Program-made: the position numbers and the translations under genes | Source: a virus | Direction: 5' to 3' (one strand) | Length of the DNA: 64,000 nt | Virus record (IMG/VR): IMGVR_UViG_3300042922_000346 | Span: 650-64,649 of that record | Notes under the pieces: generated by a model | Databases searched by the model: none | The model's input: the letters and a program-made list of their open reading frames with translations, nothing else | Told to the model about the DNA's origin: nothing | Part shown: positions 29,989-62,511 of the stretch, piece by piece | How the letters are laid out: the number at the start of each line of letters is the position of its first letter | Position numbering within the stretch: the first letter of the stretch is position 1

Positions 29989-30017
29989 ATTATAACATTT
30001 TAATTTCTTTTTGTCAA
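29989..30017 (-). promoter_or_regulatory. consensus sigma-A promoter P1 (TTGACA-17-TATAAT, TGt extended -10) upstream of dnaE
   Basis: Reverse complement reads TTGACAaaaagaaattaaaatgtTATAAT; member of 7-copy family. Confidence 0.65.
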
Positions 30018-30451
30018 TCAAGTTCTTCGATTAATATTTCTGTTCTTGGATTTGCTTTATCATATGCTCCATATATTATTAATGGATTTAAATGATTGTA
30101 ATCATCATCTATTAACATTCCTGCATGAACTAAAGCATCTAAAAAGAATTTTGGTGATTGATTATCGTTGTCATGTCGATGTTTTGTAGGATAATACGTA
30201 TTTATTGTAATTTTACATTTATTTATTTTTAAATTACTATATCCCGAAATATTAACCAACCAAACCATAAAATCATTAAATTTTTGTTTTAATATATTCA
30301 TTTCAATATTATTCATATGAGTCCATTCATTTAACGAAGGATGAACTGGTTTTAAAACAGGTGCAACTCTTCGTCTTGGGTATAATTCAAAATAATGTTT
30401 ATTGTATTCTGCTAATACACTGTTGCTAATGATAAGTAAATAGCGGTTCAA
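30014..30451 (-). CDS. RusA-like Holliday junction resolvase
   Basis: HDNDNQSPKFFLDALVHAGMLIDDDYNHL...PRTEILIEEL matches RusA D.DN..K...DAL...G.i.DD pattern. Confidence 0.55.
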   Translation of the reverse strand: MNRYLLIISNSVLAEYNKHYFELYPRRRVAPVLKPVHPSLNEWTHMNNIEMNILKQKFNDFMVWLVNISGYSNLKINKCKITINTYYPTKHRHDNDNQSPKFFLDALVHAGMLIDDDYNHLNPLIIYGAYDKANPRTEILIEELD

Positions 30452-30456
30452 TTAAA

Positions 30457-31026
30457 TCAATCCTTTAGTAAAATTTTAAGTAAGTCGTATAATTCTAACC
30501 AATTAGTTACTCTGTAACCATCCCAATCTTTATTCCAACTATAATTACCATAACATATTTTTATTTTTGAAGGATTAGTAACTAAGCATTCTATCTTATC
30601 GTCTATAATAACATCACCAATTACAGAACTCTTATCAAATTTAAAAGGTTGATTTTTATAAATTGGTAATACAGTTACTTTATCCACATGTGGCATGTTT
30701 TGATAAATCCATGCTTTTTTTATTATAACACCCTCTATTCTGTGCAAAGTTAATCCTTCAATAATATGCCCATCAAATTTAAGCAATCGTATAACTTCAT
30801 TAACATTAGGAAATAATTCTAAATATTGGAAAAGTTTAGGATTTGCAAATACATTATCTATATCTTCTGGTGTCCATAAAGGACATACTTTACCCATGTT
30901 CCATTCTAATGTTTCATCATTTAATTCAGTTGAATAATCATTTGTTTGTTCACGATACAGTTTTAATACTGCATCGTGAGTTGGAACACAAGTTGAATCA
31001 AAATCTATTAAGATGTGTTTCCTCAT
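30457..31026 (-). CDS. HAD-superfamily 5'(3')-deoxyribonucleotidase-like hydrolase
   Basis: N-terminal HAD motif I ILIDFDST (DxDxT); size and layout like NT5C/YorS-type nucleotidases. Confidence 0.5.
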   Translation of the reverse strand: MRKHILIDFDSTCVPTHDAVLKLYREQTNDYSTELNDETLEWNMGKVCPLWTPEDIDNVFANPKLFQYLELFPNVNEVIRLLKFDGHIIEGLTLHRIEGVIIKKAWIYQNMPHVDKVTVLPIYKNQPFKFDKSSVIGDVIIDDKIECLVTNPSKIKICYGNYSWNKDWDGYRVTNWLELYDLLKILLKD

Positions 31027-31043
31027 AATATCACCCCATATTA

Positions 31044-31721
31044 TTAAATTATTTTTGTTATTATTTCATCTATTAATCCGTATTCTAATGCTTCTTCTGC
31101 TGTCATCCACCATTCTTTAGTGTAGTTTTTATTCATTAGTTTTTTTGAAATAGTAGTGTGATTTACAATATATTTTTTAACTAATTTTTCTCTTTTTATA
31201 ACAAATGGAAAGTAATCTATAAATTTACCTATAGAATTTTGATTGCCTGTAGTTCCATCATGTATAAGAAAAGTACTATTAGGATAACACGCTTTATAAT
31301 GACATGCCATTGGTAATAATGCCCCCATAGAATAAGCATGAGATATTACTATGCCGTATACTGGTGTTTTACTTGCTTTAATAATATCTATTAAGGCAAA
31401 TCCATATCTATCATCTCCTCCATCACAAGCAATATATAGTTTAATAGGTATTCTTTCTTCTTCTGGAAGTTCTCTTTCATCATCTTCTTGATTCATTTTT
31501 ATAATCGGTAGGATATATTTATTAGCTGTACTTTCATCAAGTACCCCAACTATTTTAATTTCTCTTCTTGCATAATCAACACAAGAATCTGTTTGAACAG
31601 TATCTTCTCCATCACTTAATGCAATTAATAATTCTGCTAATTCTTCATCTGTCATGTCATCAAGTTTATTAACCTTCTGTAATTTTGATTTTAATATATT
31701 AATTTTATTTATATTTTTCAT
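31044..31721 (-). CDS. ClpP-like serine protease (S14 family)
   Basis: PIKLYIACDGGDDRYGFALIDIIKASKTPVYGIVISHAYSMGALL (active-site Ser region), FLIHDG (His), C-terminal MTAEEALEYGLIDEII all in ClpP order. Confidence 0.7.
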   Translation of the reverse strand: MKNINKINILKSKLQKVNKLDDMTDEELAELLIALSDGEDTVQTDSCVDYARREIKIVGVLDESTANKYILPIIKMNQEDDERELPEEERIPIKLYIACDGGDDRYGFALIDIIKASKTPVYGIVISHAYSMGALLPMACHYKACYPNSTFLIHDGTTGNQNSIGKFIDYFPFVIKREKLVKKYIVNHTTISKKLMNKNYTKEWWMTAEEALEYGLIDEIITKII

Positions 31722-31737
31722 AAAATCAACTCCTTAG

Positions 31738-32484
31738 TTATTTATTTGAAGAACCTAGTTTACCTGTACCTCTTTTAGATGGAATAGCCATTATCTCTTC
31801 TACTGTCTTTTCTACAACGTCCACATCTGGAACTTCCTCTAATGATGCTTGACAAATAGCTTTAGCATAAGGATAATAAGTTGTGGAATCAGTAACAATC
31901 ACTTTATCAACTGATTTACTAATTATAATAGGTTTTGTACCTCCATTACTTAACGCTACAAACCATTCTCCTCTATATCCAGAGTCAATTTTTCCTGCTC
32001 GGATTTCCATTAAATTAGTACCAGTTGAACCTCTTTCGCCTAATGATACTTTATATTTAGGGTCAAACGCAGATATTATTCCAGTAGGAATCATAACACA
32101 GGTTTGTGGTTGAATGATAAAACCATCTTCTTCAAAACATGCATATACGTCATACCAACCATTTTCATAATCCTTTGAAGGTATTTTAGCATCTTGTTTT
32201 AATTTAGCAAAATATATTTCATCTTTTTTATTTTTAATGAATCCTTCTTCCCCAATAACGATAGTTGTATTATCAATTATTTTTGCTTTTGATAAAGTAT
32301 TAGTTGTTGGTTTAATGTCTGGAGTTAATGGTATTCCAACCCCTTCTTTTGTTTCAATAAAAACACCTTTTGCAAAATTAACAATTTTTTCTACTATATA
32401 AGTTTCATTAGTTTTTATATTTATCACCTCGTCCCCTTTTTCAAAAAAGGTTTTAGTACGATTGTTATAAATAGTTTTTTTCAT
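31738..32484 (-). CDS. dut: dUTP diphosphatase with ~110-aa N-terminal extension
   Basis: dUTPase motifs IPTGI, SLGERGS, RAGKIDSGYRGE, and C-terminal RGTGKLGSS in C-terminal 140 aa; N-terminal 110 aa unassigned. Confidence 0.75.
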   Translation of the reverse strand: MKKTIYNNRTKTFFEKGDEVINIKTNETYIVEKIVNFAKGVFIETKEGVGIPLTPDIKPTTNTLSKAKIIDNTTIVIGEEGFIKNKKDEIYFAKLKQDAKIPSKDYENGWYDVYACFEEDGFIIQPQTCVMIPTGIISAFDPKYKVSLGERGSTGTNLMEIRAGKIDSGYRGEWFVALSNGGTKPIIISKSVDKVIVTDSTTYYPYAKAICQASLEEVPDVDVVEKTVEEIMAIPSKRGTGKLGSSNK

Positions 32485-32485
32485 A

Positions 32486-32653
32486 TTATCTCCTCCCTTT
32501 CTTTGAGTCTTTAACTATTGTATATCCTGCCAGTTTAGCTTTTAATATAGTAATTCCCTGTTCACCTAAAATCTCTTCTATTGTAAAAGTACCATATTTA
32601 CCCTCTTCCCATTTAAGAACATTACCTTTTAATTCGTTTTTGAATATTGTCAT
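32486..32653 (-). CDS. small hypothetical protein (55 aa), first gene after promoter P2; below ORF-track cut-off
   Basis: Strong RBS AAAAGGAGAGGA 6 nt before ATG (reverse complement of 32651-32653); stop overlaps dut RBS. Confidence 0.45.
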   Translation of the reverse strand: MTIFKNELKGNVLKWEEGKYGTFTIEEILGEQGITILKAKLAGYTIVKDSKKGRR

Positions 32654-32674
32654 AAATATCCTCTCCTTTTGTTA

Positions 32675-32703
32675 ATATAGTTATATTATACCACTTTAAT
32701 TTC
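32675..32703 (-). promoter_or_regulatory. consensus sigma-A promoter P2 (TTGACA-17-TATAAT, TGg extended -10)
   Basis: Reverse complement TTGACAaaaagaaattaaagtggTATAAT. Confidence 0.65.
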
Positions 32704-32771
32704 TTTTTGTCAACATATTTTGACAAAATATAAGGAATTTCTTCCTTATGTACAAGGGGAAACCCCTTGAA

Positions 32772-33068
32772 TTATAAATTTGATTTTTCTTTCCATTTAT
32801 CCATTTTCTTTGTTAAAGTTTCAATTAATTCAGTAGGGTTTCCATCTAATTTGTAGAATAAGGATAATGCTACCAATATTACATCAATACATTCTTCTTT
32901 AATATCTTGAGATGTTAATTGTTTATATTCACAACCATTTGCTTTTAACCAAGATAATAAAGCTTGAAAACATTCTCCTGTTTCTTCTCCTAATTTTAAA
33001 GCCATTTGTTCTAATGATTTTGATTCTGTTTTACTTAATTCATGAATTTGTTCTAGTATATTATTCAA
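32772..33068 (-). CDS. MazG-like nucleotide pyrophosphohydrolase (small all-alpha NTP-PPase)
   Basis: KLGEETGECFQAL ... EECIDVILVAL paired E-x-x-E / E-x-x-D helices typical of MazG domain. Confidence 0.5.
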   Translation of the reverse strand: MNNILEQIHELSKTESKSLEQMALKLGEETGECFQALLSWLKANGCEYKQLTSQDIKEECIDVILVALSLFYKLDGNPTELIETLTKKMDKWKEKSNL

Positions 33069-33091
33069 ATAATCACTCTCCCATCCAAGAT

Positions 33092-33358
33092 TTATAGACT
33101 ATATTCTAGTTTTTCATAACTATCCGCATAATCAAATCCTATTATTTTTATACCATTAAATGTTTTTAAAGTTAAATCTTCATTATATGCCTTTTTATAA
33201 TAAGCAAGTTTCGATTTAAAATTGTCTCTTTGATTTATTATTATTTCTGGTTGTTCAAATCCCTCCATTTGTATTTTTACACCGATATACCTTGCTCCAT
33301 TATTATATGCTTTTTCAATACAGTTTTCTAATTCAGTTAATGATAATTCACTGTTCAT
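33092..33358 (-). CDS. hypothetical protein (88 aa)
   Basis: ORF in operon. Confidence 0.45.
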   Translation of the reverse strand: MNSELSLTELENCIEKAYNNGARYIGVKIQMEGFEQPEIIINQRDNFKSKLAYYKKAYNEDLTLKTFNGIKIIGFDYADSYEKLEYSL

Positions 33359-33371
33359 ATAAATCCTCTCC

Positions 33372-33893
33372 TTAATATCTTAATATTTTAGTTCCTTTAA
33401 TTAAGCTGTCTTTAACATTTATAACATTTTGATTTTTACTACCTCTAAATTTTAATGTAATGTCTCTTTGAGTTATATCAAATCTACCATCAACTAAAAC
33501 ATCACATAATTCTAATAATCTTAATTTATTACTATCTTCTAATATTTCCTCGTAAGTAAATCCAGAATAAATCCAAATATTTTTTGTTGGACATGCGTGA
33601 TGAAACATTTGTAAAAATAAAAAACAGTCATTGGCAGAGAAAAAGGGGTCACCACCGCTCAGAGTAATGCCTTGAATTAAAGGGTTTGTTTCAACATATT
33701 TTATAAGGTCTAATTGCATTTCATAATCAAAAGGTTTACCATATTGAAAGTTGTGAGTGAGGGGATTATGACACCCCTCACAAGCATGTAAACAACCACT
33801 AATAAATACTGTTGTTCTTACGCCCTCACCATCAACTAAACTTTCATAATTTATTCCACTAACATACATCTTTAATAATCCTTCTTGGTTCAT
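33372..33893 (-). CDS. nrdG: anaerobic ribonucleotide reductase activating protein (radical SAM)
   Basis: CLHACEGCHNP CxxxCxxC cluster; overlaps nrdD 3' end by 35 nt. Confidence 0.85.
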   Translation of the reverse strand: MNQEGLLKMYVSGINYESLVDGEGVRTTVFISGCLHACEGCHNPLTHNFQYGKPFDYEMQLDLIKYVETNPLIQGITLSGGDPFFSANDCFLFLQMFHHACPTKNIWIYSGFTYEEILEDSNKLRLLELCDVLVDGRFDITQRDITLKFRGSKNQNVINVKDSLIKGTKILRY

Positions 33894-36147
33894 TTAAAAT
33901 GGTTATTCCTTCTGCTGTGAAATTAGTATATTTACTATGCTTTACTCTATCTAGTGTTTCTGCAATTTTACCTTTATTAAAATTTCTATAATCTGTTGTT
34001 AAATAACCTGTAACCCTTCTAAGTTGTTGAATATTTTTACTACCACAAACTGGACATGCATCATTGAACTCACCTTGATAACCACAATCTAAACAACTAT
34101 CAATCGGAAAATTAAATGCTAAATATGGAATATCTAAATCCATAGCATAATCTATAATTGCTTCTATTGCTTCTTCATTATTAATTATTGAGTTTTCTAA
34201 TTCGATATAAGTTATACATCCTCCTGTTGGATATTTGCAGAATGGTGCTTCTATTTTTAATTTATCAAAAATAGATACTTCTTGCCATACTGGAACATGA
34301 TGTGAATTAGTTAAATATTCTCTATCGGTAACATTTGGAATAATACCGTATTCCTCTTTAAGTTTTTCCATCATGGTTTTACATAAATTCTCCGCAGGAG
34401 TAGCATATGCACTAAAGTTTAAATTGTATTTGTCACTTGCTATCTTAGCATAATCATGAATATATTTAACTACTGATAATGCAAAAGCGTGAACTTTTTC
34501 ATCTTCCGCATGATTGTTTCCAAACAATGCTTCACACATTTCAGCAATACCAATATATCCTATTGCGTTAGTATTGTGTTTCATTGCTTCATAAACACTT
34601 TTATCAATAACTTTATCATATCCCATCATTGTTCCATTTTTATACATGAAAGGTGCTGATTTGGGAGATTGACTACAAATATGATAAAATCTATCAATTA
34701 ATCCTATTACAGCTAACTCTAATACTTCATCTAGTTCTTTCCAAAAGGCTTCTAAATTATTTTTATCATGAAGAATACCCAACTTAGGAAGATTAATTGT
34801 TATTGGAGATACATTTCCTCTGCCAACTTTAACATATGAATTACTAAATCTATCGTATCCTAACATTGTTCTACATCCCATAGTTGCCATGAAAGTATCT
34901 GGATTATTAGGGTCTTCTATATTCATTGACCAATCTCCATTTGCCCAATTAGGATAAATTCTTTTTGTCATGGATTTTATAGCTAATTTTTTAATAGTAT
35001 AATTTGGTGTATTGGGTTTATCATTTATCCCTTTTTTATATTGGAAAATTGAAATAGGGAATATTGAAGTTAAATTATACTTACCAATTCCATCTATACT
35101 AGCTTTAAATATCCATTCATTAATCCATCTTCCTTCTGGACTAGTATCTCTACCTAGGTTAATTGATGTGAATGGAAGTTGAGAACCGGGACGACTCTCA
35201 AGGGTATTAAGGTTATGATATAATGCTTGAGCAGATTGTAATCCTTCTTTATTAGTCATATCGTAAGCATATTCCCAAACAGCAGGATTTAACTCTTTAT
35301 ATCTTTTATCCTCAACTTTTATTTTATATTTACCATATTGCTCAGTGATTTCTTCGTCTGTAAGTCTTGCAATATATTTTAATCCAACCTTATAATGTTT
35401 GGTAAAAGATTTAATAACATGTGGTGCTAAATCAAAATCCAAATGAACAGACCCAACTCCACCAAACTGTACTTGACTCTGACATTGAAAAATAACAGCC
35501 ACAAGTTGCATTGCAGTACTTATTGAATTTGCTCCTCGAACATCTCCATTCCTAGTTACAAACCCATTATTTAATGTTTGTGGTAAATCGCAAAATAAAC
35601 AATTATGCATTCCTACATCATAAGAATCTAAGTCATGAATATATATTCTATTTTGTTTGTGTGCTTGGGAAACAGAAGGTCTTATTAAGTTATTTAAAGC
35701 AAAATCTTTATGAAGAACTCCTGCACTTTCAAACTTTCTTCCTCCAAAAGAATATTCATCTACATTAGCATTAGAATTTTGAATATTTTTACAAAGTAAA
35801 ATATCAGATATTTTTTTATTAATTTCACTATTTTTATGCCTATCTATAGTTCGTTGGGTTCTATATTTAATATATTCTCTGGCAACATCTTTATATTGAC
35901 TTGCCATTAACTTGTTCTCAACAATTGTTTGGACATATTCTATATCTACTATTTCTTGTTGCATTTTTTCAATACCTTCTGCAATTTGATTAGCGTAATT
36001 ATAGTCTACCTCTTTAATTTTTATATCTGGATGACCTTCTTTCCCAAGTTTAATAGTATAAATCATAGCTGATATAATTGCATCTACAATCTTTTGTTTA
36101 TTAAATGGTTTTAGTCTTCCGTCACGTTTCACAATTTGTCTTATCAT
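33859..36147 (-). CDS. nrdD: anaerobic ribonucleoside-triphosphate reductase
   Basis: N-terminal ATP-cone; C-terminal Zn ribbon CLDCGYQG...CPVCGS and glycyl-radical motif RVTGYL. Confidence 0.9.
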   Translation of the reverse strand: MIRQIVKRDGRLKPFNKQKIVDAIISAMIYTIKLGKEGHPDIKIKEVDYNYANQIAEGIEKMQQEIVDIEYVQTIVENKLMASQYKDVAREYIKYRTQRTIDRHKNSEINKKISDILLCKNIQNSNANVDEYSFGGRKFESAGVLHKDFALNNLIRPSVSQAHKQNRIYIHDLDSYDVGMHNCLFCDLPQTLNNGFVTRNGDVRGANSISTAMQLVAVIFQCQSQVQFGGVGSVHLDFDLAPHVIKSFTKHYKVGLKYIARLTDEEITEQYGKYKIKVEDKRYKELNPAVWEYAYDMTNKEGLQSAQALYHNLNTLESRPGSQLPFTSINLGRDTSPEGRWINEWIFKASIDGIGKYNLTSIFPISIFQYKKGINDKPNTPNYTIKKLAIKSMTKRIYPNWANGDWSMNIEDPNNPDTFMATMGCRTMLGYDRFSNSYVKVGRGNVSPITINLPKLGILHDKNNLEAFWKELDEVLELAVIGLIDRFYHICSQSPKSAPFMYKNGTMMGYDKVIDKSVYEAMKHNTNAIGYIGIAEMCEALFGNNHAEDEKVHAFALSVVKYIHDYAKIASDKYNLNFSAYATPAENLCKTMMEKLKEEYGIIPNVTDREYLTNSHHVPVWQEVSIFDKLKIEAPFCKYPTGGCITYIELENSIINNEEAIEAIIDYAMDLDIPYLAFNFPIDSCLDCGYQGEFNDACPVCGSKNIQQLRRVTGYLTTDYRNFNKGKIAETLDRVKHSKYTNFTAEGITILNEPRRIIKDVC

Positions 36148-36227
36148 TATAATTCCTCCTAATGTTTTTATATTTTTAAATTAATATGGTGGTGCATGTG
36201 TATATAACATTAATACTTCACCTCCTT

Positions 36228-36785
36228 TTATTTAATAATATATCCACTAATAGCTTGTCTTCCCATTTTTAATGTTCTTTTTTTATAATTATACGTTGAT
36301 TCATTTGATAATCTAGGAACAAATCTATCTAGTCTATTATTTTTATTAAAATCATTACCACCTCTATCTGAAACAGTTACAATTCCAATCCCTTCTAAAT
36401 AGATTTTTGTTCCTAATGGATAAAAATTACTTGCCACCATACCATCAACTAATTTTTTACCTTCACATGTTCCAACATGTCCACCATTTTCTTCTGGTAA
36501 ATCAGTATAGTGAGTAACTGTAAAATCAACAACTTGGATTGTTGGTGGCATACCACCTCTACTAAAAGATTGTTGATTTGTAGGCATAGTTATTGTTTTT
36601 ACATCTGCTCTATTTATTTCTTTACTTGGTAAAGTTGCTGTAAGTGGCAAAATTACTTCTTCTATTTTAATATTATTATTTTCTTGTTTAGGGACATCAA
36701 CACTATTACTTGTTTCACTATGATAAGATAAAAGTAATGATACAACAATTAACGATACCATAGCTGTTTTATTTGTTTGTTTCAA
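36228..36785 (-). CDS. secreted 3D-domain protein (MltA/YuiC-like cell-wall lytic domain)
   Basis: N-terminal signal/TM VSLIVVSLLLSY; C-terminal VASNFYPLGTKIYLEGIGIVTVSDRGG...NRLDRF matches 3D-domain conserved Asp pattern. Confidence 0.55.
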   Translation of the reverse strand: MKQTNKTAMVSLIVVSLLLSYHSETSNSVDVPKQENNNIKIEEVILPLTATLPSKEINRADVKTITMPTNQQSFSRGGMPPTIQVVDFTVTHYTDLPEENGGHVGTCEGKKLVDGMVASNFYPLGTKIYLEGIGIVTVSDRGGNDFNKNNRLDRFVPRLSNESTYNYKKRTLKMGRQAISGYIIK

Positions 36786-36801
36786 AAGTATCCCTCCTTA
36801 A

Positions 36802-37515: not shown

Positions 37516-37527
37516 GTCTATTCCTCC

Positions 37528-38109: not shown

Positions 38110-38114
38110 AACAT

Positions 38115-38251
38115 TACCCCTTACATTTATGATGTTTTAATATTTTATCATAATTTTTTATAATATAAATTGTTCCTGTGTATAAAAATATTGAAATTAA
38201 CCATATTCCCATTAATACTTTTATATAAAAGTCTCCTAGCTGTGATTCCAT
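38115..38251 (-). CDS. small membrane protein (45 aa), below ORF-track cut-off
   Basis: RBS ATAAGGAGGAT 7 nt before ATG; one TM helix VLMGIWLISIFLYTGTIYII. Confidence 0.4.
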
Positions 38252-38296
38252 TCTTATATCCTCCTTATAATAAAAGGAGATAAACTCTCCTCTTTA

Positions 38297-39145
38297 TTAT
38301 TTTTTAACTGTATCTGCAACAGGTAATTGTAATATCATACCACTATCTCCAGATGTAATAGTTGGAAGTTTCCCATCCCATTTCTTTATCATTTCCATTT
38401 GAACCATTTCTGGGGTTAATTGCTGTGACTTTAATTTATATGATTCTGCTTCTGCTTTAGCTTGTTCAATTTGTTGTTGTGCTTCTGTTTTAATTCTAAC
38501 TAAATCTTGGTCAGCTTTCAAAGCATTTTGTTGAGCAGTTTGTTTTGCTTCAACCGCTTTATTAAATTCATCTGAGAAGTCAAAATCTATAATATTAAAA
38601 TTATCGACTTTTAATCCATATGCCATTATTTTTTCAGACAAAGCTGATTTTATTTGGTCACTGATATCTTGTCTTTTTGTAATTAATTCTTCCGCAGTAA
38701 ATTTAGCTGTTACACTTTTTACAGATTCTTGAATTGCAGGAATAATTATTACTGATTCATAAGCAGTTCCAACAGTCTTATAGATTTGACCAGAAGCATT
38801 TTTTTCTAACTGATAATTAACAGCTACCTTAGATTTAACTACTTGCAAATCTTTTGAAGATGCACTACTTGCAACTTCTGTTACCTTTGTCCTATTATCC
38901 ATAATAATAACTTTTGTTATAAATGGAAGTTTACCATGTAGTCCTTCTTGCATAACCTCATTTGATACTGCTCCAAAATGAGTTACTACTCCAGTGTGTC
39001 CAGATTTGACCCCTGTAACAGAATTTAATCCTATGATTAATATTCCTAATCCTACTAGTCCCCCAATAATTAAACCTTTTGTTGCTTTACCCATAATATC
39101 AATTCTCCTCGTATTTATATTTGGGAGGAAATATCCTCCCCACAT
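38297..39145 (-). CDS. SPFH/band-7 (prohibitin/HflC-like) membrane protein
   Basis: N-terminal TM helix; VVTHFGAVSNEVMQEGLHGKLPFITKVIIMDNRTKV... then Ala/Gln-rich coiled coil with repeated EAKQTAQQ/EQAKAEAE is the SPFH pattern. Confidence 0.7.
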   Translation of the reverse strand: MWGGYFLPNINTRRIDIMGKATKGLIIGGLVGLGILIIGLNSVTGVKSGHTGVVTHFGAVSNEVMQEGLHGKLPFITKVIIMDNRTKVTEVASSASSKDLQVVKSKVAVNYQLEKNASGQIYKTVGTAYESVIIIPAIQESVKSVTAKFTAEELITKRQDISDQIKSALSEKIMAYGLKVDNFNIIDFDFSDEFNKAVEAKQTAQQNALKADQDLVRIKTEAQQQIEQAKAEAESYKLKSQQLTPEMVQMEMIKKWDGKLPTITSGDSGMILQLPVADTVKK

Positions 39146-39149
39146 TACA

Positions 39150-39178
39150 TATTATACTACTTTAATTTATTTTTGTCA
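39150..39178 (-). promoter_or_regulatory. consensus sigma-A promoter P3 (TTGACA-17-TATAAT) with 5' UTR hairpin GGGAGGATATTTCCTCCC
   Basis: Reverse complement TTGACAaaaataaattaaagtagTATAAT; hairpin at 39121-39140. Confidence 0.65.
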
Positions 39179-39183
39179 AGTAT

Positions 39184-44018: not shown

Positions 44019-44027
44019 ACCCCCCTC

Positions 44028-44063
44028 TAGTAAAAATAAGGGAGATAATAAACCTCCCTTATT
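44028..44063 (-). terminator. rho-independent terminator after AAA_24 ATPase gene
   Basis: On minus strand ATAAGGGAG-loop-CTCCCTTAT followed by TTTT. Confidence 0.5.
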
Positions 44064-44069
44064 TAATTA

Positions 44070-45551: not shown

Positions 45552-45605
45552 TTAATCTTCACATCCTTTAATTTATTTTAGTGAGGGGAGTGTATCCCCT
45601 CATTT

Positions 45606-47052: not shown

Positions 47053-47083
47053 GGGTTTTTTGTAATATCTTGTCGAAATTTTT

Positions 47084-47115
47084 GTTATAATGGAGAATGT
47101 TTTCTCCATTATAAC
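47084..47115 (-). other. 14-bp perfect-stem hairpin overlapping the 3' end of the topoisomerase A-subunit gene
   Basis: GTTATAATGGAGAA-tgtt-TTCTCCATTATAAC; no U-tract on either strand. Confidence 0.6.
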
Positions 47116-51388: not shown

Positions 51389-51432
51389 ATATACTATAGT
51401 ATATGGTCAGTGGTAAGGATTGTTACCACTGG
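51389..51432 (-). promoter_or_regulatory. structured 5' leader of topoisomerase operon: 16-bp perfect palindrome ATATACTATAGTATAT plus 9-bp stem hairpin CAGTGGTAA-ggattg-TTACCACTG
   Basis: Both lie between the P5 -10 box and the start codon. Confidence 0.5.
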
Positions 51433-52158: not shown

Positions 52159-52201
52159 AATATCACCTCTTTTATTTTGTTATACATATTGGAAATACAA
52201 A

Positions 52202-52782: not shown

Positions 52783-52790
52783 AAAATGAA

Positions 52791-53066: not shown

Positions 53067-53139
53067 TTATAAATTCCTCCTTAAATTTTTTACTTAATTC
53101 ACATTGTTTATAAAATTCATGTTTTAATAAGTTTTTACG

Positions 53140-53209
53140 CTGTTTTCTTTGTAATAATATACAAAAATAAGCTGTTTTTATAATATATTTTGATATATTT
53201 TTGTATATT
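53140..53209. repeat. 21-bp perfect inverted repeat TTTGTAATAATATACAAAAATA separated by 25-bp spacer containing TATAAT
   Basis: Read directly; lies between the RecD-like gene 3' end and the next gene. Confidence 0.7.
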
Positions 53210-53220
53210 ATTACAAAACA

Positions 53221-55452: not shown

Positions 55453-55468
55453 CGTTATCCCTCCTGTG

Positions 55469-55708
55469 TTACTCCACTACGAATAATTCCTCCCTCGAAA
55501 ATAATATTTCTGTTTCATCATTTAGTTCGTAAGGGAATCCTGCTTCTATTCCATAACTTAGTATACCTATTATTTCATATACTGTATTATAGTTATTTTT
55601 TATATGTCTCATGTCAGATAGTTTAATATCCATATCTAATAAATTCCATACATCTAATTTTTCTGGGTCATACATAACTTTTGTTCCTATTGGTAAATAT
55701 TCAATCAT
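55469..55708 (-). CDS. hypothetical protein (79 aa)
   Basis: ORF in operon. Confidence 0.4.
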   Translation of the reverse strand: MIEYLPIGTKVMYDPEKLDVWNLLDMDIKLSDMRHIKNNYNTVYEIIGILSYGIEAGFPYELNDETEILFSREELFVVE

Positions 55709-55715
55709 ATTATCC

Positions 55716-56318
55716 CTACTTTCCTACATTTAATTTTAACAAATCTTTTTTATATTCTGCTGAATTACATATTTTTAAAGCATGAACTTCAATTTCTTTA
55801 TTTATCATTTCAGCATCATTATAAACTACTTTAATTTCTGATTGTAAAGTATTCTTTTTCACATCTAGCATAAATAACCTTTCTTTTAAATTAATTATTT
55901 CTGATTCAACATTAGATAATTCTGTTTCTTTATATGAAACTGTGTCAGCAATAGTTTCTTTTTTACTTTCTAATTTAATCTTCAATAGTTTAATTTTTTC
56001 TAGTAAACTATCAGTCACCACTCTATCTATCTCTTCATCAAATCCAAAATCAATCCGATATAAAGTTATTATAGTTGTATTTGCGGTATCTGTAACTAAC
56101 ACAATATTATCTCTTAACCAATAATTTTTAGTAGATTTATCTCCATTAATTTGCATTGTGCAAATTAGTTGAGCATGTTCAACCATCTTATTAACATTTT
56201 CTACTATTTTTTCTCTATTAGAATTTATGTGTTGTCTCCCAGTAGTCATATCTGTTATACCTATGATTCTCTCTACATACCTATCTAAAGCATGATTTGT
56301 TACGTTCATTAATATCAT
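55716..56318 (-). CDS. hypothetical protein, N-terminal DUF4258-like (HAxxRxxER) region plus C-terminal coiled coil
   Basis: NHALDRYVERIIGI...LRDNIVLVTDTANTTIITLYR pattern. Confidence 0.4.
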   Translation of the reverse strand: MILMNVTNHALDRYVERIIGITDMTTGRQHINSNREKIVENVNKMVEHAQLICTMQINGDKSTKNYWLRDNIVLVTDTANTTIITLYRIDFGFDEEIDRVVTDSLLEKIKLLKIKLESKKETIADTVSYKETELSNVESEIINLKERLFMLDVKKNTLQSEIKVVYNDAEMINKEIEVHALKICNSAEYKKDLLKLNVGK

Positions 56319-56324
56319 CTCCTC

Positions 56325-56615
56325 TTATTTGTTTATTGCATATACTGCACAAGTTTTATTTGAAATTAAATCTTTTTTCTTACTAAGTACTATAATCTTA
56401 TTTTGAGAAACTAATTCATTTAATCTAGGATGAACAAAATTCCTTGAGAAATATGGAGTTATACCTTTGTTAAACATTTCCATAGCTAATTCATTTGCCG
56501 TTGCTTCTCCTAGTTGTTTTAAGGTATTATAACATTGTTCTTGTCTATTTGGAATTTCTGGTTTAATTTCCTCATAACTTTGGTTTCTTGTTTCTATTGT
56601 TATGGTTGATAACAT
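56325..56615 (-). CDS. small putative winged-helix DNA-binding protein (96 aa)
   Basis: Helix-turn-helix-like segment TANELAMEMFNKGITP and wing-like tail; weak. Confidence 0.35.
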   Translation of the reverse strand: MLSTITIETRNQSYEEIKPEIPNRQEQCYNTLKQLGEATANELAMEMFNKGITPYFSRNFVHPRLNELVSQNKIIVLSKKKDLISNKTCAVYAINK

Positions 56616-56677
56616 AATAAAACCTCCTTATTATTTGCTTTAGTATGTATATTTCTAGGGACTCCCCTAGAAATATT

Positions 56678-57271
56678 TTAACTTATAGGAGTATTAAAAT
56701 CAATTTCTATATTCTTCCTTGATGCTAAATAATCTGATAATGCTACAATAGCATCTAATTTCGTCTTTGGTAAAGGTAATACAACATTACTATACTTATT
56801 AGTATTCCATTGACTCATATGACAATTTATACATTGGAATAATATATCGGATGTACCCATACAAGTATTTTCTAAAGCATCCATTACTTTTGTATTTTTA
56901 CTTAACAATTCGGTAATTATTAATGGATGTTCATGTACTGTGAAATTACTTTGCTCTATACCAGATTTTGCTCCATCATGTAATATTCCTGCTACTATGA
57001 AAATATCTCTTTCATTATCTGTAAAATCAAATAATGTTTTAAATTGTATCATATTTAATCCTATTCTCACAAGTGCCTTAGAATGTCTTACAAGTCCACC
57101 ATCTCCCAAGCAATAACTAGGGTGATATTTACCTGTGCTAGATGCAGGAATAGTGAAAAAATAATCTGGAACAACTTCTGCTAAAGCTACCATTACAGCA
57201 ATTTTCATATTTGGATTTTTTATTGCATTTATTTCATCATGAAACAATTCTATTTTTTCTTTTGGTGTCAT
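56678..57271 (-). CDS. HD-domain phosphohydrolase
   Basis: H...HD...D pattern: KYHPSY...AGILHDGAKSG...H. Confidence 0.55.
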   Translation of the reverse strand: MTPKEKIELFHDEINAIKNPNMKIAVMVALAEVVPDYFFTIPASSTGKYHPSYCLGDGGLVRHSKALVRIGLNMIQFKTLFDFTDNERDIFIVAGILHDGAKSGIEQSNFTVHEHPLIITELLSKNTKVMDALENTCMGTSDILFQCINCHMSQWNTNKYSNVVLPLPKTKLDAIVALSDYLASRKNIEIDFNTPIS

Positions 57272-57272
57272 A

Positions 57273-57836
57273 TTACTTCACCAACTTTGCTAAATATTTT
57301 TCTCTTTTATTAAGTGCTTTAAGCCGTTCGTCTATCTTAGCATCAAATTCTTTTATTTCCTTATTGATGTTATAATAATCTCTTTTTATTTCAGCTTTCG
57401 CTTTTGCTATTTTAAGTCCAGTAACTTCATTATATTCATCTTCTGGTAAACATTTTGCAACACCTTTGAATATTTTATTCCCTTCTTTAACAATATATAT
57501 AATAGCAGGATAACTATAAATTATTTTACCATTTGGTAATGGTATAACCCTATCTTCTTTTGCATTGAAGATATTCCATGTATTTTCTTTTTTAGTTTCT
57601 ACAAATTCAAGCATATCACTTGACCAACTATATGACCCATTATCTATATCTAATAAATATCTAACATTTTCATAATCTAAAGAGTTATTCATATAATCTA
57701 CAATTTTAACTTTAGCTTCTTTACCTTTAAATTCTTTCATTTTAAAAACAAATCCACATCCGTTATATAATTCAGAAGTAACTAAATCTTCTTTTATTTT
57801 TACTCTATCTCCAATTATAAATAATTTCTTTCCCAT
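57273..57836 (-). CDS. hypothetical protein (187 aa)
   Basis: ORF 1 nt after next gene stop. Confidence 0.5.
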   Translation of the reverse strand: MGKKLFIIGDRVKIKEDLVTSELYNGCGFVFKMKEFKGKEAKVKIVDYMNNSLDYENVRYLLDIDNGSYSWSSDMLEFVETKKENTWNIFNAKEDRVIPLPNGKIIYSYPAIIYIVKEGNKIFKGVAKCLPEDEYNEVTGLKIAKAKAEIKRDYYNINKEIKEFDAKIDERLKALNKREKYLAKLVK

Positions 57837-57837
57837 A

Positions 57838-58368
57838 TTATCGCGCTCCTTCGTTTTTATTATTTGATAAAAGTTCTATAATAATATATTGTATAGCTAT
57901 TAAAGTTTTTGTATCTTTAATGCTTATTTGTAATAATTGATTGATATCAAACCATTCTACTGATTCAACATCAGAATCTTCTACTATTGTACTAACTCCT
58001 ATTCCATCATATTCAACAACAAATATTGAACTCGTAGCATCACTACTACCACAAATCATATAATATTCTCTAACCAGTTGTGGAACAGATAATTTATCTT
58101 TTGGTAAATTACATTCCTCTTGAAGTTCTTCAATAAGAATATCTTCTGGAGATTTGTCTTTATCAATGCATCCAGCAGGAAGTTCGTATAAATATTGCTC
58201 AACACAAGGTCTATACTGTTTAACTAAAGCTACTTTCCCCACATTATCTATTACAATTGCAGAAACAGCACTCTTTATGTGTAGCTTTTCTCTTGTGACA
58301 GGGTTTCCTTTAATTAAGCTGTCAATTTTTTCAACTTTATGCCAACCATTATAAACTATTTCACTCAT
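57838..58368 (-). CDS. Nudix hydrolase, ADP-ribose pyrophosphatase-like with degenerate Nudix box
   Basis: YELPAGCIDKDKSPEDILIEELQEECNL aligns to lElPAGkid.gEsp.eaAiRELkEEtGl with R-to-E and G-to-N substitutions. Confidence 0.45.
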   Translation of the reverse strand: MSEIVYNGWHKVEKIDSLIKGNPVTREKLHIKSAVSAIVIDNVGKVALVKQYRPCVEQYLYELPAGCIDKDKSPEDILIEELQEECNLPKDKLSVPQLVREYYMICGSSDATSSIFVVEYDGIGVSTIVEDSDVESVEWFDINQLLQISIKDTKTLIAIQYIIIELLSNNKNEGAR

Positions 58369-58375
58369 TAAATTA

Positions 58376-58654
58376 TCACCTTACCCTTATAATATCATTA
58401 TTTTGGTTTATTATTTCTGATATATTATTTGATGATACAATAATTGGTATAGGTAATATTTTTTTATAATTTTCATAACTATCTGTAGAAACTACCATAA
58501 CATAAAGTCCATTTTCATCAACCATACCTACTTTACCTAAATTACCATATGATGTATATTTATTATCTTTTGTTGTAAAACTAATAACATCTCCAACGTT
58601 TATATCATATTCTTTTATTGTTGGTATATTTACATTAACTTTAATTTTACCCAT
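58376..58654 (-). CDS. hypothetical protein (92 aa)
   Basis: ORF; ATGA overlap with upstream gene. Confidence 0.45.
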   Translation of the reverse strand: MGKIKVNVNIPTIKEYDINVGDVISFTTKDNKYTSYGNLGKVGMVDENGLYVMVVSTDSYENYKKILPIPIIVSSNNISEIINQNNDIIRVR

Positions 58655-58842
58655 TAATATTCCTCCTTACAATAATCCTTCAATTCATTTTTAATCTTTT
58701 GCTTATTCTTCTCTTTATTTTCTTCTTCTTCATGAAACCCTGTTTTAAACTCTGGTTTATATACTTTACCTTCTCTATTTAATAATAAATCTTTACCACT
58801 TATAACCATAGTACTCTTCTCTTTTTTCTTAGATTTACCCAT
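58654..58842 (-). CDS. hypothetical Lys/Glu-rich protein (62 aa)
   Basis: ORF. Confidence 0.4.
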   Translation of the reverse strand: MGKSKKKEKSTMVISGKDLLLNREGKVYKPEFKTGFHEEEENKEKNKQKIKNELKDYCKEEY

Positions 58843-59481
58843 TTATACCTCCGTTAAAACATCCTTACTTTCATAAACATCATGAAGTTTATAATAAATT
58901 AGATTAGGGTCTTTTTTAAAATGATTTATATTATCGTGAGATTGTGCAGGAGATATTCCTAACATAATCTCACGTAGCATAGAGTAATGTTTGTGTGTTT
59001 TTGAATGAGCATATTTATGCCATTCCTCCTTATTGTCTTGAATTAACCAGTTTCTCATTTGTGTTGCTGATACTGGGGTTAATGCTCTTGGAACAACTAT
59101 TCTTAAAGTTGTCCTCATTTCATCATCTGTAAACCAACCATTTACCTTTTCATCTCCAAACATACATACATCTGGCTGTTTACCCATATATTGATTAACT
59201 GTATTTAATAAGTATTGAGTCCAATTTGAACTCATATCATGTTTATCAATTAAATCGCTTATTGGTTTAACAATAACTCTATCTCCATAAATTTCCTCAA
59301 TTAACTTTATTCTTAATTTAATATCGTATGGATTTTCATAAGTGCCGTACTCTTGACTACTTCCAACTAAAACTAATATTCTATCACATATCTGCAAACC
59401 AGTATCAATAACACTACAATGTCCTATGTGAATATGTTGAAATCTTCCGATATATAATCCTAAATCTGGGTTAGTTAACAT
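58843..59481 (-). CDS. nicotinamide/nicotinate mononucleotide adenylyltransferase (NadM/NatV-type NMNAT)
   Basis: N-terminal nucleotidyltransferase signature LGLYIGRFQHIHIGH ((H/T)xGH motif). Confidence 0.65.
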   Translation of the reverse strand: MLTNPDLGLYIGRFQHIHIGHCSVIDTGLQICDRILVLVGSSQEYGTYENPYDIKLRIKLIEEIYGDRVIVKPISDLIDKHDMSSNWTQYLLNTVNQYMGKQPDVCMFGDEKVNGWFTDDEMRTTLRIVVPRALTPVSATQMRNWLIQDNKEEWHKYAHSKTHKHYSMLREIMLGISPAQSHDNINHFKKDPNLIYYKLHDVYESKDVLTEV

Positions 59482-59485
59482 AACA

Positions 59486-59695
59486 TCATCTCCTTATCAA
59501 TATAACTAGTATTATTAAAAATCCTATAAATAATCCAAATTTTATAATAAGTATTTTTAATAATTCATCTTCAATAGCTTTTTTAATTACTTTAGTATCT
59601 TTTTTCTTTTTTAATTGTCTTGGAAAATGTAAATTTTTAGGTACTTTGATTGACACGCTTTGTTTTTGAGTAAATCCAGTTTTGCCCATCGTCAA
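59486..59695 (-). CDS. small protein with C-terminal TM helix (69 aa)
   Basis: LKILIIKFGLFIGFLIILVILI. Confidence 0.4.
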   Translation of the reverse strand: MTMGKTGFTQKQSVSIKVPKNLHFPRQLKKKKDTKVIKKAIEDELLKILIIKFGLFIGFLIILVILIRR

Positions 59696-59705
59696 CTTCC
59701 TCCTT

Positions 59706-59734
59706 ATTGTAACACTTTAATTTATGTTTGTCAA
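59706..59734 (-). promoter_or_regulatory. near-consensus sigma-A promoter P6 (TTGACA-17-TACAAT, TGt extended -10); -35 overlaps upstream hairpin
   Basis: Reverse complement TTGACAaacataaattaaagtgtTACAAT; hairpin CAAGGGGATTAACCCCTTG at 59731-59749. Confidence 0.6.
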
Positions 59735-59753
59735 GGGGATTAACCCCTTGAAT

Positions 59754-61154
59754 TTATTTTATATCATATTTCTCATGAAACGAATTAATTAAAGCTTGTG
59801 TTTCTTTTGATAATAATATTTTTTCTTGTGTTGTTTTTTGAGCATATGCCCTGCTCCTTACTTCATCAAAATGTCTAGAATTAACTGTTGCGATATATGC
59901 TTCATTACCAGATGGAATATATTCATATATTACTTCATATAAGCCTTCTCCGTCCCCATCTTGAACAACCATGTCGCCATTATTATAAGTTAAATGAACT
60001 ATATTTGGAATAGATTGTTTTATTGGTTCAGTTGGCACAAGTTTCATTCTTGGTTGACCATTTGAAAAGGCTGTTTTCATTGCCCATCCCAAAGTGTCTC
60101 TTTCAAGATTCTTATAAAATCCTGCTCCAATTCCATAATTTACAAAATTAATTGGCACATCATAATCTAACAATTTAGAATCAAATTTCTTAGCTTCTTC
60201 AAAAGACATTCCTTCACCAACAATTACCGCACAGCTATTTAATAAATCATTTTCTTTAGCAATTTTATATATTGCTACTGTTTGGTCAAATATATCTCCA
60301 CTATCTGGTCGCCAAACAACTTTTACACCTTTTGATTTAGCATATTCAGTTAATGGAGTTACCCATTTATTAATTACATTCCATGCATTATAGGTATCTA
60401 TAACCATTGCTACAATACCTTCTCCTACTTCTTTTGTTGCATCTATAGTATGAATAAAACATTCATATTCATCATCAAATTGTTGAGTTACTTTGTGTGC
60501 TAAAGCAGAGATTGAACCCATAACGCCATTTGGCATGTGTTGAAAAACATGAAAATCATCTGTGCCTTGTAAGAACAATGACCAAGCTGTTCCTGCAAAA
60601 TAAGAATCTTCTAAACTTTTATGACCTCTAAATCCAAAACTATGAAACTTCCATAGAAATCCATCATCATAACCAAATTGATTTTGTCTTTCAACTAAAT
60701 ATTTTTTCATATTAAATGCTTCTGTAGCACATGCACTTGGAAACCAACCATGCATAAGAATTGCTTCTAACCATGTAACCATTTCTCCAAAACCCTTTAC
60801 TGTGTTTCTTATTTGAGCAAATGGTGTATTGATTGGACAATAAGTCCCTTCTGGTAACATTTCAATCTTTATTGGGATTCTACCATTACACTCCGTAACG
60901 ACTCTCTTCCACAATTCCTTTGGAAAACTTAATCCTCTTTGTTCAGCTAATTTATCAGCTTTATTTACCATACTCATAGTAATTTTCTTAGAAAGAATAC
61001 TATTTACAATTTCCTTTAGTCCATATAATATCATTGGGTTTGCTCTATTATACATATGAGAAACCTCAAAATCTGTATTTACTTTTAATCTTTCATGGGA
61101 AAGATTATAAACATCTGTTAGCATTATTGGGTTCTTTCTTATATCTCCTAACAT
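59754..61154 (-). CDS. nadV: nicotinamide phosphoribosyltransferase (NadV/NAMPT)
   Basis: 466 aa; blocks GFRGHKS, DSGD, GIGAGFYKNLERDTLGWAMK characteristic of NAMPT family. Confidence 0.75.
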   Translation of the reverse strand: MLGDIRKNPIMLTDVYNLSHERLKVNTDFEVSHMYNRANPMILYGLKEIVNSILSKKITMSMVNKADKLAEQRGLSFPKELWKRVVTECNGRIPIKIEMLPEGTYCPINTPFAQIRNTVKGFGEMVTWLEAILMHGWFPSACATEAFNMKKYLVERQNQFGYDDGFLWKFHSFGFRGHKSLEDSYFAGTAWSLFLQGTDDFHVFQHMPNGVMGSISALAHKVTQQFDDEYECFIHTIDATKEVGEGIVAMVIDTYNAWNVINKWVTPLTEYAKSKGVKVVWRPDSGDIFDQTVAIYKIAKENDLLNSCAVIVGEGMSFEEAKKFDSKLLDYDVPINFVNYGIGAGFYKNLERDTLGWAMKTAFSNGQPRMKLVPTEPIKQSIPNIVHLTYNNGDMVVQDGDGEGLYEVIYEYIPSGNEAYIATVNSRHFDEVRSRAYAQKTTQEKILLSKETQALINSFHEKYDIK

Positions 61155-61164
61155 ATTATCCCTC

Positions 61165-61440
61165 CTAAACTTCTAGTGATAGACTTAATCTATCCTTTAA
61201 TATAACTTCTTTAACAGGTTCTTGATAAAATAAACTTCCATTACTTATTCTCTCTTCTAATTGTCCAAGACTTTCATAATTACTTACTATTTTAATATTT
61301 TTTAAATCTAATAAACTAGCTTTATAATTATAACCTTGACAAGATTCTACTATCATATATAAACTTCCACCTGTTGTTACTAAAACATCACCATAAGCTA
61401 ATTTGCATGAGTTTTTTGTTGTATCAAAATTTATCTTCAT
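61165..61440 (-). CDS. hypothetical protein (91 aa)
   Basis: ORF. Confidence 0.45.
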   Translation of the reverse strand: MKINFDTTKNSCKLAYGDVLVTTGGSLYMIVESCQGYNYKASLLDLKNIKIVSNYESLGQLEERISNGSLFYQEPVKEVILKDRLSLSLEV

Positions 61441-61452
61441 ATTATCATCCTC

Positions 61453-62214
61453 CTAATATCTATTCTTTCTTTTTATTATTCTATAAATAACATATATAAT
61501 AATTATTAAAACAATCAAACTAATTATGTCCCATAAAACTGACCTAACTCCTCCGTATACTGGAGCATATCCTCCACTAGTATATCCATCTGCATAAATT
61601 GGTCTATTATCATTTGTTACTGCTCTATAAAACCAATAATGTGACCAAAAATTATTCCAACTACTACCACTATTATCATAATAACCATTGGTATTATATC
61701 CTGCGTTGTATCCACTAGAATTATTTGAACTTTGAGTTGACGTAGTATTTCCAGAAGTTAAACCAGACGAACTAGGTTTAACCGATATAGCTGAACCACC
61801 TGTTACTGTTGTTCCAGAAGAACTTGGCTTAACTGTAGTTGAAGTTGAACTGCTCGGTTTAGTAGTTGTACTTGTACTGGGTTTAGTGGTTGTACTACTA
61901 CTTGGAGCAATAGTTGTGGAAGTAGAAGGTTTCGTAGTAGTTGATGTGCTAGGTTTTACAGTTGTAGACGTTGAAGGTTTTGTCGTGGTTGTAGACGTAC
62001 TTGGCTTAATGGTCGTAGTTGATGTTGAAGGTTTAACTGTACTAGTACTTGTACTAGGTTTTGATACACTAGTTGATGTACTAGGTCTACTAACTGAACT
62101 GGTACTTGGTCTACTTACACTCGTTGATGATTTTGCAAATCCAATTTCACCTGTAAACATAATTAACATTATGGTCGTTATAATTGATACTAAAATCTTA
62201 TTACCTTTTTTCAT
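61453..62214 (-). CDS. Ser/Thr/Pro-rich mucin-like type I membrane protein with tandem KPSTSTTT repeats
   Basis: Signal peptide, ~130 aa of (V)KPSTSTTT repeats, Gly/Tyr/Asn-rich segment, C-terminal TM LIVLIIIIYVIY and basic tail. Confidence 0.6.
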   Translation of the reverse strand: MKKGNKILVSIITTIMLIMFTGEIGFAKSSTSVSRPSTSSVSRPSTSTSVSKPSTSTSTVKPSTSTTTIKPSTSTTTTKPSTSTTVKPSTSTTTKPSTSTTIAPSSSTTTKPSTSTTTKPSSSTSTTVKPSSSGTTVTGGSAISVKPSSSGLTSGNTTSTQSSNNSSGYNAGYNTNGYYDNSGSSWNNFWSHYWFYRAVTNDNRPIYADGYTSGGYAPVYGGVRSVLWDIISLIVLIIIIYVIYRIIKRKNRY

Positions 62215-62232
62215 TTCCCCACACTCCTTAAT

Positions 62233-62436
62233 TTATATATTTCTATATGCCATTATTTTTGATTTTACTACAGAAGTCCAAATAGTTGATTCAACTCCTT
62301 TATCATCAACTACAACTTCTGGAACAACGAAATCTAAACCATCTGGAATTTCAGTTAATGCTTTCTTCATTTCCTCCCAATTATAAGTTGTGAAAATCAA
62401 TGTTCCACCATCCATTACTAATATTACTTTACTCAT
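62233..62436 (-). CDS. hypothetical protein (67 aa)
   Basis: First ORF after promoter P7. Confidence 0.45.
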   Translation of the reverse strand: MSKVILVMDGGTLIFTTYNWEEMKKALTEIPDGLDFVVPEVVVDDKGVESTIWTSVVKSKIMAYRNI

Positions 62437-62482
62437 AATACCATCTCCCTTTGTTTTTATTATTTCTCTTGACTACTATTAT

Positions 62483-62511
62483 ATTATAACACTTTAATTT
62501 CTTTTTGTAAA
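62483..62511 (-). promoter_or_regulatory. sigma-A promoter P7 (TTTACA-17-TATAAT, TGt extended -10)
   Basis: Reverse complement TTTACAaaaagaaattaaagtgtTATAAT. Confidence 0.6.

Follow-up and report, generated by a model that had tools for sequence, protein, structure and literature searches.

Predicted host sigma-A promoters along the non-structural arm of an AT-rich phage, five of them with a shared spacer of possibly regulatory role

Which RNA polymerase reads the non-structural genes of an AT-rich phage, and can the DNA between the two hexamers of its promoters carry information of its own? Both questions are raised by a 64,000-nucleotide stretch of viral DNA (positions 650 to 64,649 of the IMG/VR record IMGVR_UViG_3300042922_000346), here analysed at its full length and referred to as the window, in which the minus strand repeats the motif TTGACA-N17-TATAAT seven times and five of the seven copies are similar in the spacer as well. 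The window has a G+C content of 28%, intergenic DNA makes up 4.1% of it, and the genes switch strand near 26.6 kb, with a plus arm at 1-26615 and a minus arm, made up of non-structural gene blocks, at 26638-64000. The source, a JGI contig of 64.6 kb, is only part of the phage genome (80-170 kb in relatives), and the gene absences reported below hold for the window. The seven sites and the genes that they precede are:

P30017: 29989-30017, minus strand; TTGACA-AAAAGAAATTAAAATGT-TATAAT, with TGn before the -10; precedes dnaE (26638-29940, minus strand), the -35 overlapping the stop codon of the RusA-like gene
P32713: 32685-32713, minus strand; TTGACA-AAAAGAAATTAAAGTGG-TATAAT, with TGn; precedes an open reading frame (ORF) of 55 amino acids, then genes for dCTP-deaminase/dUTPase-like, ClpP, 5'-nucleotidase (NT5C) and RusA proteins
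P39179: 39151-39179, minus strand; TTGACA-AAAATAAATTAAAGTAG-TATAAT, no TG; precedes genes for SPFH, guanylate kinase (gmk), ThyX (thyX), NrdD (nrdD), NrdG (nrdG) and MazG-like proteins
P47052: 47024-47052, minus strand; TTGACA-AAATTAAGTATAAATGG-TATAAT, with TGn, different spacer; precedes a recombination/replication block (SSB-like, AAA_24 or Sak4-like, primase-like, PD-(D/E)XK nuclease)
P51471: 51443-51471, minus strand; TTGACA-AATGTAGAAATTTGTAG-TATAAT, no TG, different spacer; precedes the genes for GyrB-like and GyrA-like topoisomerase II subunits
P59734: 59706-59734, minus strand; TTGACA-AACATAAATTAAAGTGT-TACAAT, with TGn; precedes the NMNAT-like, NUDIX, HD and RecD2 block
P62511: 62483-62511, minus strand; TTTACA-AAAAGAAATTAAAGTGT-TATAAT, with TGn; precedes a 67-amino-acid ORF and the genes up to the NAMPT-like one

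Searching the window for TTGACA-N17-TATAAT with at most one mismatch returned 11 matches against 2.73 expected, a count that none of 100 dinucleotide-preserving shuffles reached. Seven of the 11 are the sites listed above, all on the minus strand, five of them perfect and two with one mismatch: the -35 is an exact TTGACA in six cases and TTTACA in one, and the -10 is an exact TATAAT in six and TACAAT in one. The spacer is 17 nt long in all seven, and TGn stands before the -10 in five (as RTGn in four). Every site is intergenic, on the coding strand, and 20-90 nt 5' of a start codon with a Shine-Dalgarno (SD) sequence; an apparent clash of P39179 with the longest ORF is removed by an independent gene call on an identical contig, which puts the SPFH start 50 nt downstream of the -10. 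In a log-odds matrix derived from the seven sites, these reach 25-43 bits and the next best position on either strand reaches 14 bits; when each site was left out of its own matrix, six still scored 24-41 bits and P51471 scored 5 bits. The plus-strand matches at 28411, 31849 and 45528 lie antisense to minus-strand genes and are at chance level.

These results bear out most of a preliminary description of the stretch, which had reported seven such minus-strand sites with a fixed 17-bp spacer, TGn in five of them, one TTTACA and one TACAAT, each directly upstream of a named operon, and had proposed the matrix scan that found nothing comparable elsewhere; the contents of the gene blocks were verified as well. 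Its coordinates were right for five sites and had to be shifted for two, by 10 nt (32675-32703 becomes 32685-32713) and by 1 nt (39150-39178 becomes 39151-39179).

Chance matches in AT-rich DNA are a very improbable explanation: at 28% G+C, loose promoter scans indeed return about as many hits as shuffled sequence does (166 vs 145; 143 vs 147), but the excess is clear at the stringent level (11 vs 2.73), seven random sites would all fall within the 4% of intergenic DNA with a probability of about 1e-10, and the same class of site occurs on the gene strand in relatives. Given the consensus sequence, the intergenic location on the coding strand, the lack of anything equivalent elsewhere in the window and the gene-strand-specific recurrence of the class in relatives, the seven sites are, with high probability, promoters for the host housekeeping RNA polymerase holoenzyme (sigma-A/sigma-70 class), as first proposed. 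Sigma region 4 would recognise TTGACA, region 2 the TATAAT 17 bp downstream, and region 3 the TGn at five of the sites, and transcription would run leftward along the minus strand, one unit after another; the seven units, each 2.7-8.2 kb long, encode functions in DNA replication, recombination, DNA topology (topoisomerase), and nucleotide and NAD metabolism. Recognition by sigma-A, the strength and timing of the promoters and any role of the spacer are what we infer from these data.

The recurrence in relatives was followed through DnaE. Among the genomes found in this way (39-53% identity), many loci hold, in 23 kb, 5-13 sites that deviate at no more than one position, nearly all on the gene strand; this lineage-wide recurrence is, like the sequence, position, strand and statistics of the seven sites, a direct observation. 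Gram-positive sigma-A promoters have a -16 region, with the motif TRTGnTATAAT, and the relatives' pooled logo, TTGACAAa...TRTGnTATAAT, takes this Gram-positive -16/extended -10 form (the T of TRTG at 0.75). The window sites resemble it in the TGn of five promoters and depart from it in that the first letter of TRTG is A instead of T in the spacer family. Members of the same DnaE lineage with 45-49% G+C (IMG/VR loci L047-L064 and L076) have almost no TTGACA-N17-TATAAT in 23 kb; presumably they rely on promoters of another type or on a host sigma of different specificity.

The preliminary description had also noted a spacer shared by five promoters (P30017, P32713, P39179, P59734 and P62511). 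Pairwise identity among these is 0.86 in the spacer and 0.30-0.36 in the 10 nt on either side, where the background is 0.30; across all seven promoters, mean spacer identity is 11.5/17, as compared to 6.9 +/- 0.9 in random sets drawn from 122 spacers of the lineage. The shared sequence holds approximately: the 15-mer AAAGAAATTAAAGTG is exact at only two sites (P32713 and P62511), has one mismatch at P30017 and has two each at P39179 and P59734. What is invariant in the five is an 8-nt core, AAATTAAA, at spacer positions 6-13. All 7 differences among the five spacers fall outside it, at positions 3-5 and 14-17, and uniform scatter would place them so with a chance of about 0.01-0.04, which suggests selection on the core as opposed to a neutral leftover of copying. 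Dyad symmetry is lacking in the element, which always keeps the same register relative to the -35. It is absent from P47052 and P51471.

An eighth, degenerate member of the family lies within a gene:

55818-55848, minus strand; inside ORF 55716-56318; TTTACA-ATCAGAAATTAAAGTAGTT-TATAAT, with a 19-nt spacer

This copy keeps the exact core, AAATTAAAGTAG, and matches P39179 fully in its spacer core. It may act as a weak promoter within the gene, ahead of a 79-amino-acid ORF and recD2, or be a relic. Other occurrences of the spacer 10-mer have no promoter context and no further similarity. Upstream of the promoters, pairwise identity is 0.30-0.34, which equals background, and there is no conserved A/T-rich region of the UP type. 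We considered a larger duplicated unit and rejected it, because the ORFs that directly follow the promoters show no relation among themselves; the flanks, too, are at background identity. Raised within-genome similarity of spacers was also seen in some of the DnaE-lineage relatives.

Outside the window, the strict 29-mer had no match in IMG/VR, and the contigs with the closest DnaE homologues lack the spacer. A looser pattern, in which the hexamers, AAA after the -35 and the core were fixed, matched 57 metagenome loci in DNA unrelated to the window, 45 places in 185,579 reference genomes (Clostridia and other Firmicutes for the most part, and never more than one per stretch), and 14 IMG/VR loci on 11 contigs, or about 6-7 independent promoters once near-identical loci are collapsed. 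Two controls with permuted cores matched 4 and 7 IMG/VR loci. Since shuffled cores match about as often, these cross-genome matches are the yield that a large database gives for any AT-rich spacer, and we discarded the idea of a widely favoured sequence, for which there is no meaningful enrichment. An element of a host regulon was likewise rejected: no bacterial genome carries the pattern more than once. Families of promoters within one genome are, on the other hand, common in AT-rich phages, and on one contig of 59 kb an identical 29-mer occurs three times, each time between unrelated flanks. Another case is the unrelated, AT-rich metagenome contig Ga0079303_10000003 (85 kb), where dozens of near-identical TTTACA-N17-TATAAT promoters follow one another every few hundred bases; there the flanks are conserved too (GGTGGTTTTTTC upstream, AAATTATAAAATAAA downstream), and the region looks like a dense early-gene region of repeated terminator-promoter cassettes.

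Several observations weigh against reading the seven sites as promoters of which five carry a selected spacer. P59734 leaves hardly any leader, since only 2 nt separate the end of its -10 from the SD; its transcripts would therefore be without most of the first ORF's SD and may not translate that ORF. A site with at most one mismatch stands upstream of dnaE in only 8 of 83 relatives, and promoter positions are not conserved in the lineage. The closest DnaE is just 65% identical, too distant for a test of spacer conservation over time, and the argument from clustered substitutions rests on only 5-7 events.

What, then, might the spacer do? The reading that we place first, and hold tentatively, is an operator: a phage-encoded repressor or switch protein would bind AAAGAAATTAAAGTG between the -35 and the -10, occlude RNA polymerase and so co-regulate five of the seven units, either silencing them in a lysogen or shutting them off after the early phase. 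In the distantly related phage SPbeta the master repressor MrpR (YopR) binds a repeated element, SPBRE, at ten promoter regions (PMC10516654). By our own reading of SPbeta (NC_001884) there are 11 SPBRE-like sites, of which six lie upstream or downstream of the promoter and five fill the 17-nt spacer, the layout seen here, in TAGACA-N17-TATAAT-like promoters of yonP, yorE, yorM, yorZ and yosX (positions 64155, 99586, 110906, 116155 and 129210). A recombinase beside dnaE and chromosomal homologues of DnaE make a temperate lifestyle plausible, and the core is invariant and retained even in the copy with broken promoter spacing. Against an operator stand the missing dyad symmetry, the fact that the element is never detached from its -35/-10 context, and P47052 and P51471, which are without it, so that the replication and topoisomerase units would escape silencing by a master repressor. 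Nor did we recognise a candidate for the protein: Pfam and PHROG scans of about 60 window ORFs recognised no DNA-binding family, be it helix-turn-helix, ribbon-helix-helix or MrpR-like, and the window's recombinase is not similar to YopR/MrpR, its catalytic residues being apparently in place.

It is rather doubtful that the spacer serves RNA polymerase itself, its AT-rich sequence and particular shape allowing the best binding or opening, in the manner of the extended-consensus 'uber' promoters by which T4 and T5 express early genes. Precedents exist: in T4 early promoters the consensus extends past the -35, TGn and -10 elements (PMC2988021), sigma-70 senses the spacer's sequence and conformation near -18 (PMC3130263), and other AT-rich phage contigs have promoter families with near-identical spacers. 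Relatives within the lineage, however, combine equally perfect hexamers with diverse spacers, and two perfect promoters of this same genome use other ones. Moreover, the core is no commoner in IMG/VR consensus promoters than shuffled cores of equal composition are (about 6-7 families vs 4 and 7), and it persists within a 19-nt spacer, where it would be of no help to RNA polymerase.

We give the same low rank to a neutral by-product, that is, a 29-bp promoter cassette recently copied into several intergenic places, or homogenised by short-patch gene conversion through the phage's own recombination system, with a functionless spacer. The copies are similar up to the very ends of the 29-mer and no further, the lineage has its promoters in shifting positions, one copy lies inside an ORF, and among the phage's genes are those for a Sak4-like annealing protein, an SSB-like protein and a PD-(D/E)XK nuclease; other phages, too, have identical 29-mers within one genome, set in unrelated flanks. 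The differences among the copies nevertheless avoid the 8-nt core (a weak argument), no flanking homology or repeat marks an insertion, and the first ORFs downstream are mutually unrelated.

To return to the operator, its most specific form is more tentative still than the general one: the core AAATTAAA within AAAGAAATTAAAGTG would be the putative site of a phage regulator, held in one fixed register, that jointly switches five of seven otherwise constitutive promoters, with the replication and topoisomerase units escaping it. If this is true, a two-class early programme would be encoded purely in spacer sequence, in a way analogous, and in sequence unrelated, to SPBRE/MrpR.

How far do the seven promoters divide the arm into separate units? 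The preliminary description had them partition it. They do punctuate it, though without a clean partition; hairpins stand just upstream of only three (P32713, P47052 and P59734), and further hairpins without a promoter occur within units, in the gaps at 38110-38296, 44019-44069, 45552-45605 and 56616-56677. P30017, P39179, P51471 and P62511 follow the preceding stop codon by 0-40 nt without any hairpin. The hairpins upstream of promoters, in the leaders and at the end of the arm are:

32724-32769, minus strand; two hairpins, CAAGGGGTTTCCCCTTG and AAGGAAGAAATTCCTT followed by a T-run, which end the upstream unit just before P32713; read directly from the sequence
47090-47109, minus strand; hairpin ATGGAGAAAACATTCTCCAT upstream of P47052, no T-run
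59731-59751, minus strand; GC-rich hairpin, its 3' arm overlapping the P59734 -35
29963-29982, minus strand; 5'-leader hairpin of the dnaE transcript, GGGGGUAUAUGUUUACCUCC
39123-39140, minus strand; 5'-leader hairpin after P39179, GGGAGGAUAUUUCCUCCC
51408-51431, minus strand; 5'-leader hairpin after P51471
26615-26639, no strand assigned; hairpin flanked on each side by a T-run, in the gap where dnaE and the tyrosine-recombinase gene converge; it marks where the minus-strand arm ends

Because only three of the seven promoters follow hairpins and promoter-less hairpins lie inside units, read-through between units is likely. With terminator-like hairpins preceding only some of them, the promoters would act mainly as repeated re-initiation points on one co-directional arm, and not as heads of strictly insulated operons. 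The 58-bp gap at 59696-59753 (minus strand) is crowded, holding the GC-rich hairpin, P59734 with its overlapped -35, and the SD. In two relatives, L046 and L070, the -35 lies inside a terminator loop.

Three of the seven leaders start with a stable hairpin (z-scores of about -1.5 to -2), and these hairpins may be 5' stabilisers of the mRNA or translational switches. Two of them have an SD-like 5' arm (GGGGG, GGGAGG) and an anti-SD-like 3' arm (CCUCC). A search for structured RNAs and tRNAs in the window found none. Just downstream of recD2, in the only large intergenic gap of the minus arm that has no promoter, there is a perfect 22-nt inverted repeat, TTTGTAATAATATACAAAAATA, with arms at 53148-53169 and 53196-53217, 26 nt apart and without a T-run; candidate roles are those of an origin, a site for protein binding or a signal in RNA processing.

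Near two of the promoters we also noted sequences resembling Spo0A boxes: a perfect heptamer, TGTCGAA, at 47071-47077 (plus strand), 19 nt upstream of the P47052 -35, and, upstream of P62511, a tandem pair of near-boxes (AGTCGAA and TGTCGAT, 10 nt apart) at 62521-62537 (minus strand). With at most one mismatch, such boxes number 5 near the promoters against 1.4 expected, a weak excess.

The plus arm differs. It encodes virion and tail proteins, an endolysin, a 1884-amino-acid tape measure, Dit and tail fibre proteins; the endolysin gene (4547-5512, plus strand) lies upstream of the tape-measure and tail genes and does not close the structural arm. Within 1-26615 the plus strand has no site with one mismatch or fewer, where about five would be expected at the density of the minus arm (seven in 37 kb), so that the asymmetry between the arms, which the preliminary description had noticed and found consistent with a different mechanism of late transcription, is real. 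We found no sigma factor, activator, YonO-like late polymerase or other SPbeta late factor in the window, and a promoter located to the left of the window may drive the plus arm.

The last gene of the plus arm encodes a tyrosine recombinase (25656-26615, plus strand), which is convergent with dnaE at the arm junction, an arrangement kept in the closest relatives (L209 and L210). Its catalytic R, HxxR, H and Y appear intact, and it has weak similarity to SPbeta YomM and none to YopR/MrpR. The recombinase hints at a temperate or plasmid-like lifestyle. On the minus arm, a PcfJ-like protein is encoded in addition to the NAMPT-like protein and the blocks listed above.

As for the phage itself, megablast of 12 kb against 50,697 phage records gave no match, and an exact-protein look-up returned just one 100% identical contig (Logan). 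The best non-self DnaE among 5.8 billion proteins is the one at 65% identity. DnaE is 38-43% identical to its counterparts in Geobacillus phage E3, Lactococcus phages 949, WRP3 and phiL47 and Bacillus Tsamsa-like phages, and the 39-53% range given above refers to IMG/VR contigs of 45-175 kb; homologous dnaE genes are also present in bacterial chromosomes. SPbeta is a distant relative (DnaE/YorL 21%, primase 25% and Sak4 29% identity, as well as tail proteins). The phage is an uncultured, AT-rich one, probably of clostridial type, and a temperate lifestyle is plausible because the recombinase adjoins dnaE and DnaE homologues occur in bacterial chromosomes.

Consensus promoters for the host polymerase are the expected early-gene route for a phage without an early RNA polymerase of its own, and in this respect the sites are of a well-known, largely ordinary kind. 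They are of use all the same as a reliable transcription map of the non-structural arm in an uncultured AT-rich phage without a close public relative, and as compact, very strong predicted sigma-A promoters that may serve as parts. The shared spacer appears to be specific to this genome, and SPbeta offers a clear experimental precedent for it.

Among known systems with repeated promoters, the PeSL cassettes of T4-type phages are mobile units of an early promoter plus a stem-loop at the boundaries of gene blocks. The window is like them in that repeated promoters adjoin hairpins at block boundaries and promoter positions are fluid among relatives; it is unlike them in that its hairpins have no conserved sequence and are found at just three of the seven promoters, and the flanks are unrelated, so that no recurring promoter/stem-loop unit is seen. 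The early promoters of T5 are of an extended-consensus, very strong host-RNA-polymerase type. With those of T4 and T5 the window shares a family of very strong, here predicted, host-polymerase promoters built from the -35, TGn, the -10 and additional shared positions. The extra consensus of T4, however, includes an upstream UP-like region and occurs in nearly all early promoters, whereas in the window there is no conserved upstream sequence, only five of the seven promoters share the spacer, and the host appears to be of Gram-positive type.

Global repression from dispersed sites is known from the C1 operators of P1 and the stoperators of mycobacteriophage L5, in which a short asymmetric sequence is repeated at many units. 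Their sites are numerous and many lie outside promoters, unlike the five or six copies in the window, all of them in promoter context. Of the marks of a dispersed operator, an element shared by several promoters is present here (five copies and a degenerate one); an element separable from the promoter, and a cognate phage repressor within the window, were not found.

SPbeta is the closest comparison. SPBRE has a short dyad (ATACA...TGTAT) and also occurs outside promoters, whereas the element of the window is asymmetric and always in a spacer; the SPbeta -35 is imperfect (TAGACA) where that of the window is perfect, the two element sequences are unrelated, and the window holds no detected MrpR homologue. 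Yet both are large Firmicutes siphoviruses with a DnaE-type polymerase and distantly homologous replication and tail genes, and both repeat an element of about 15 bp at many non-structural promoters of the sigma-A type, with five SPbeta spacers filled by it in a fixed register. The shared spacer described here offers a clean case in which to ask whether the spacers of phage promoters carry regulatory information, as SPBRE does in SPbeta.

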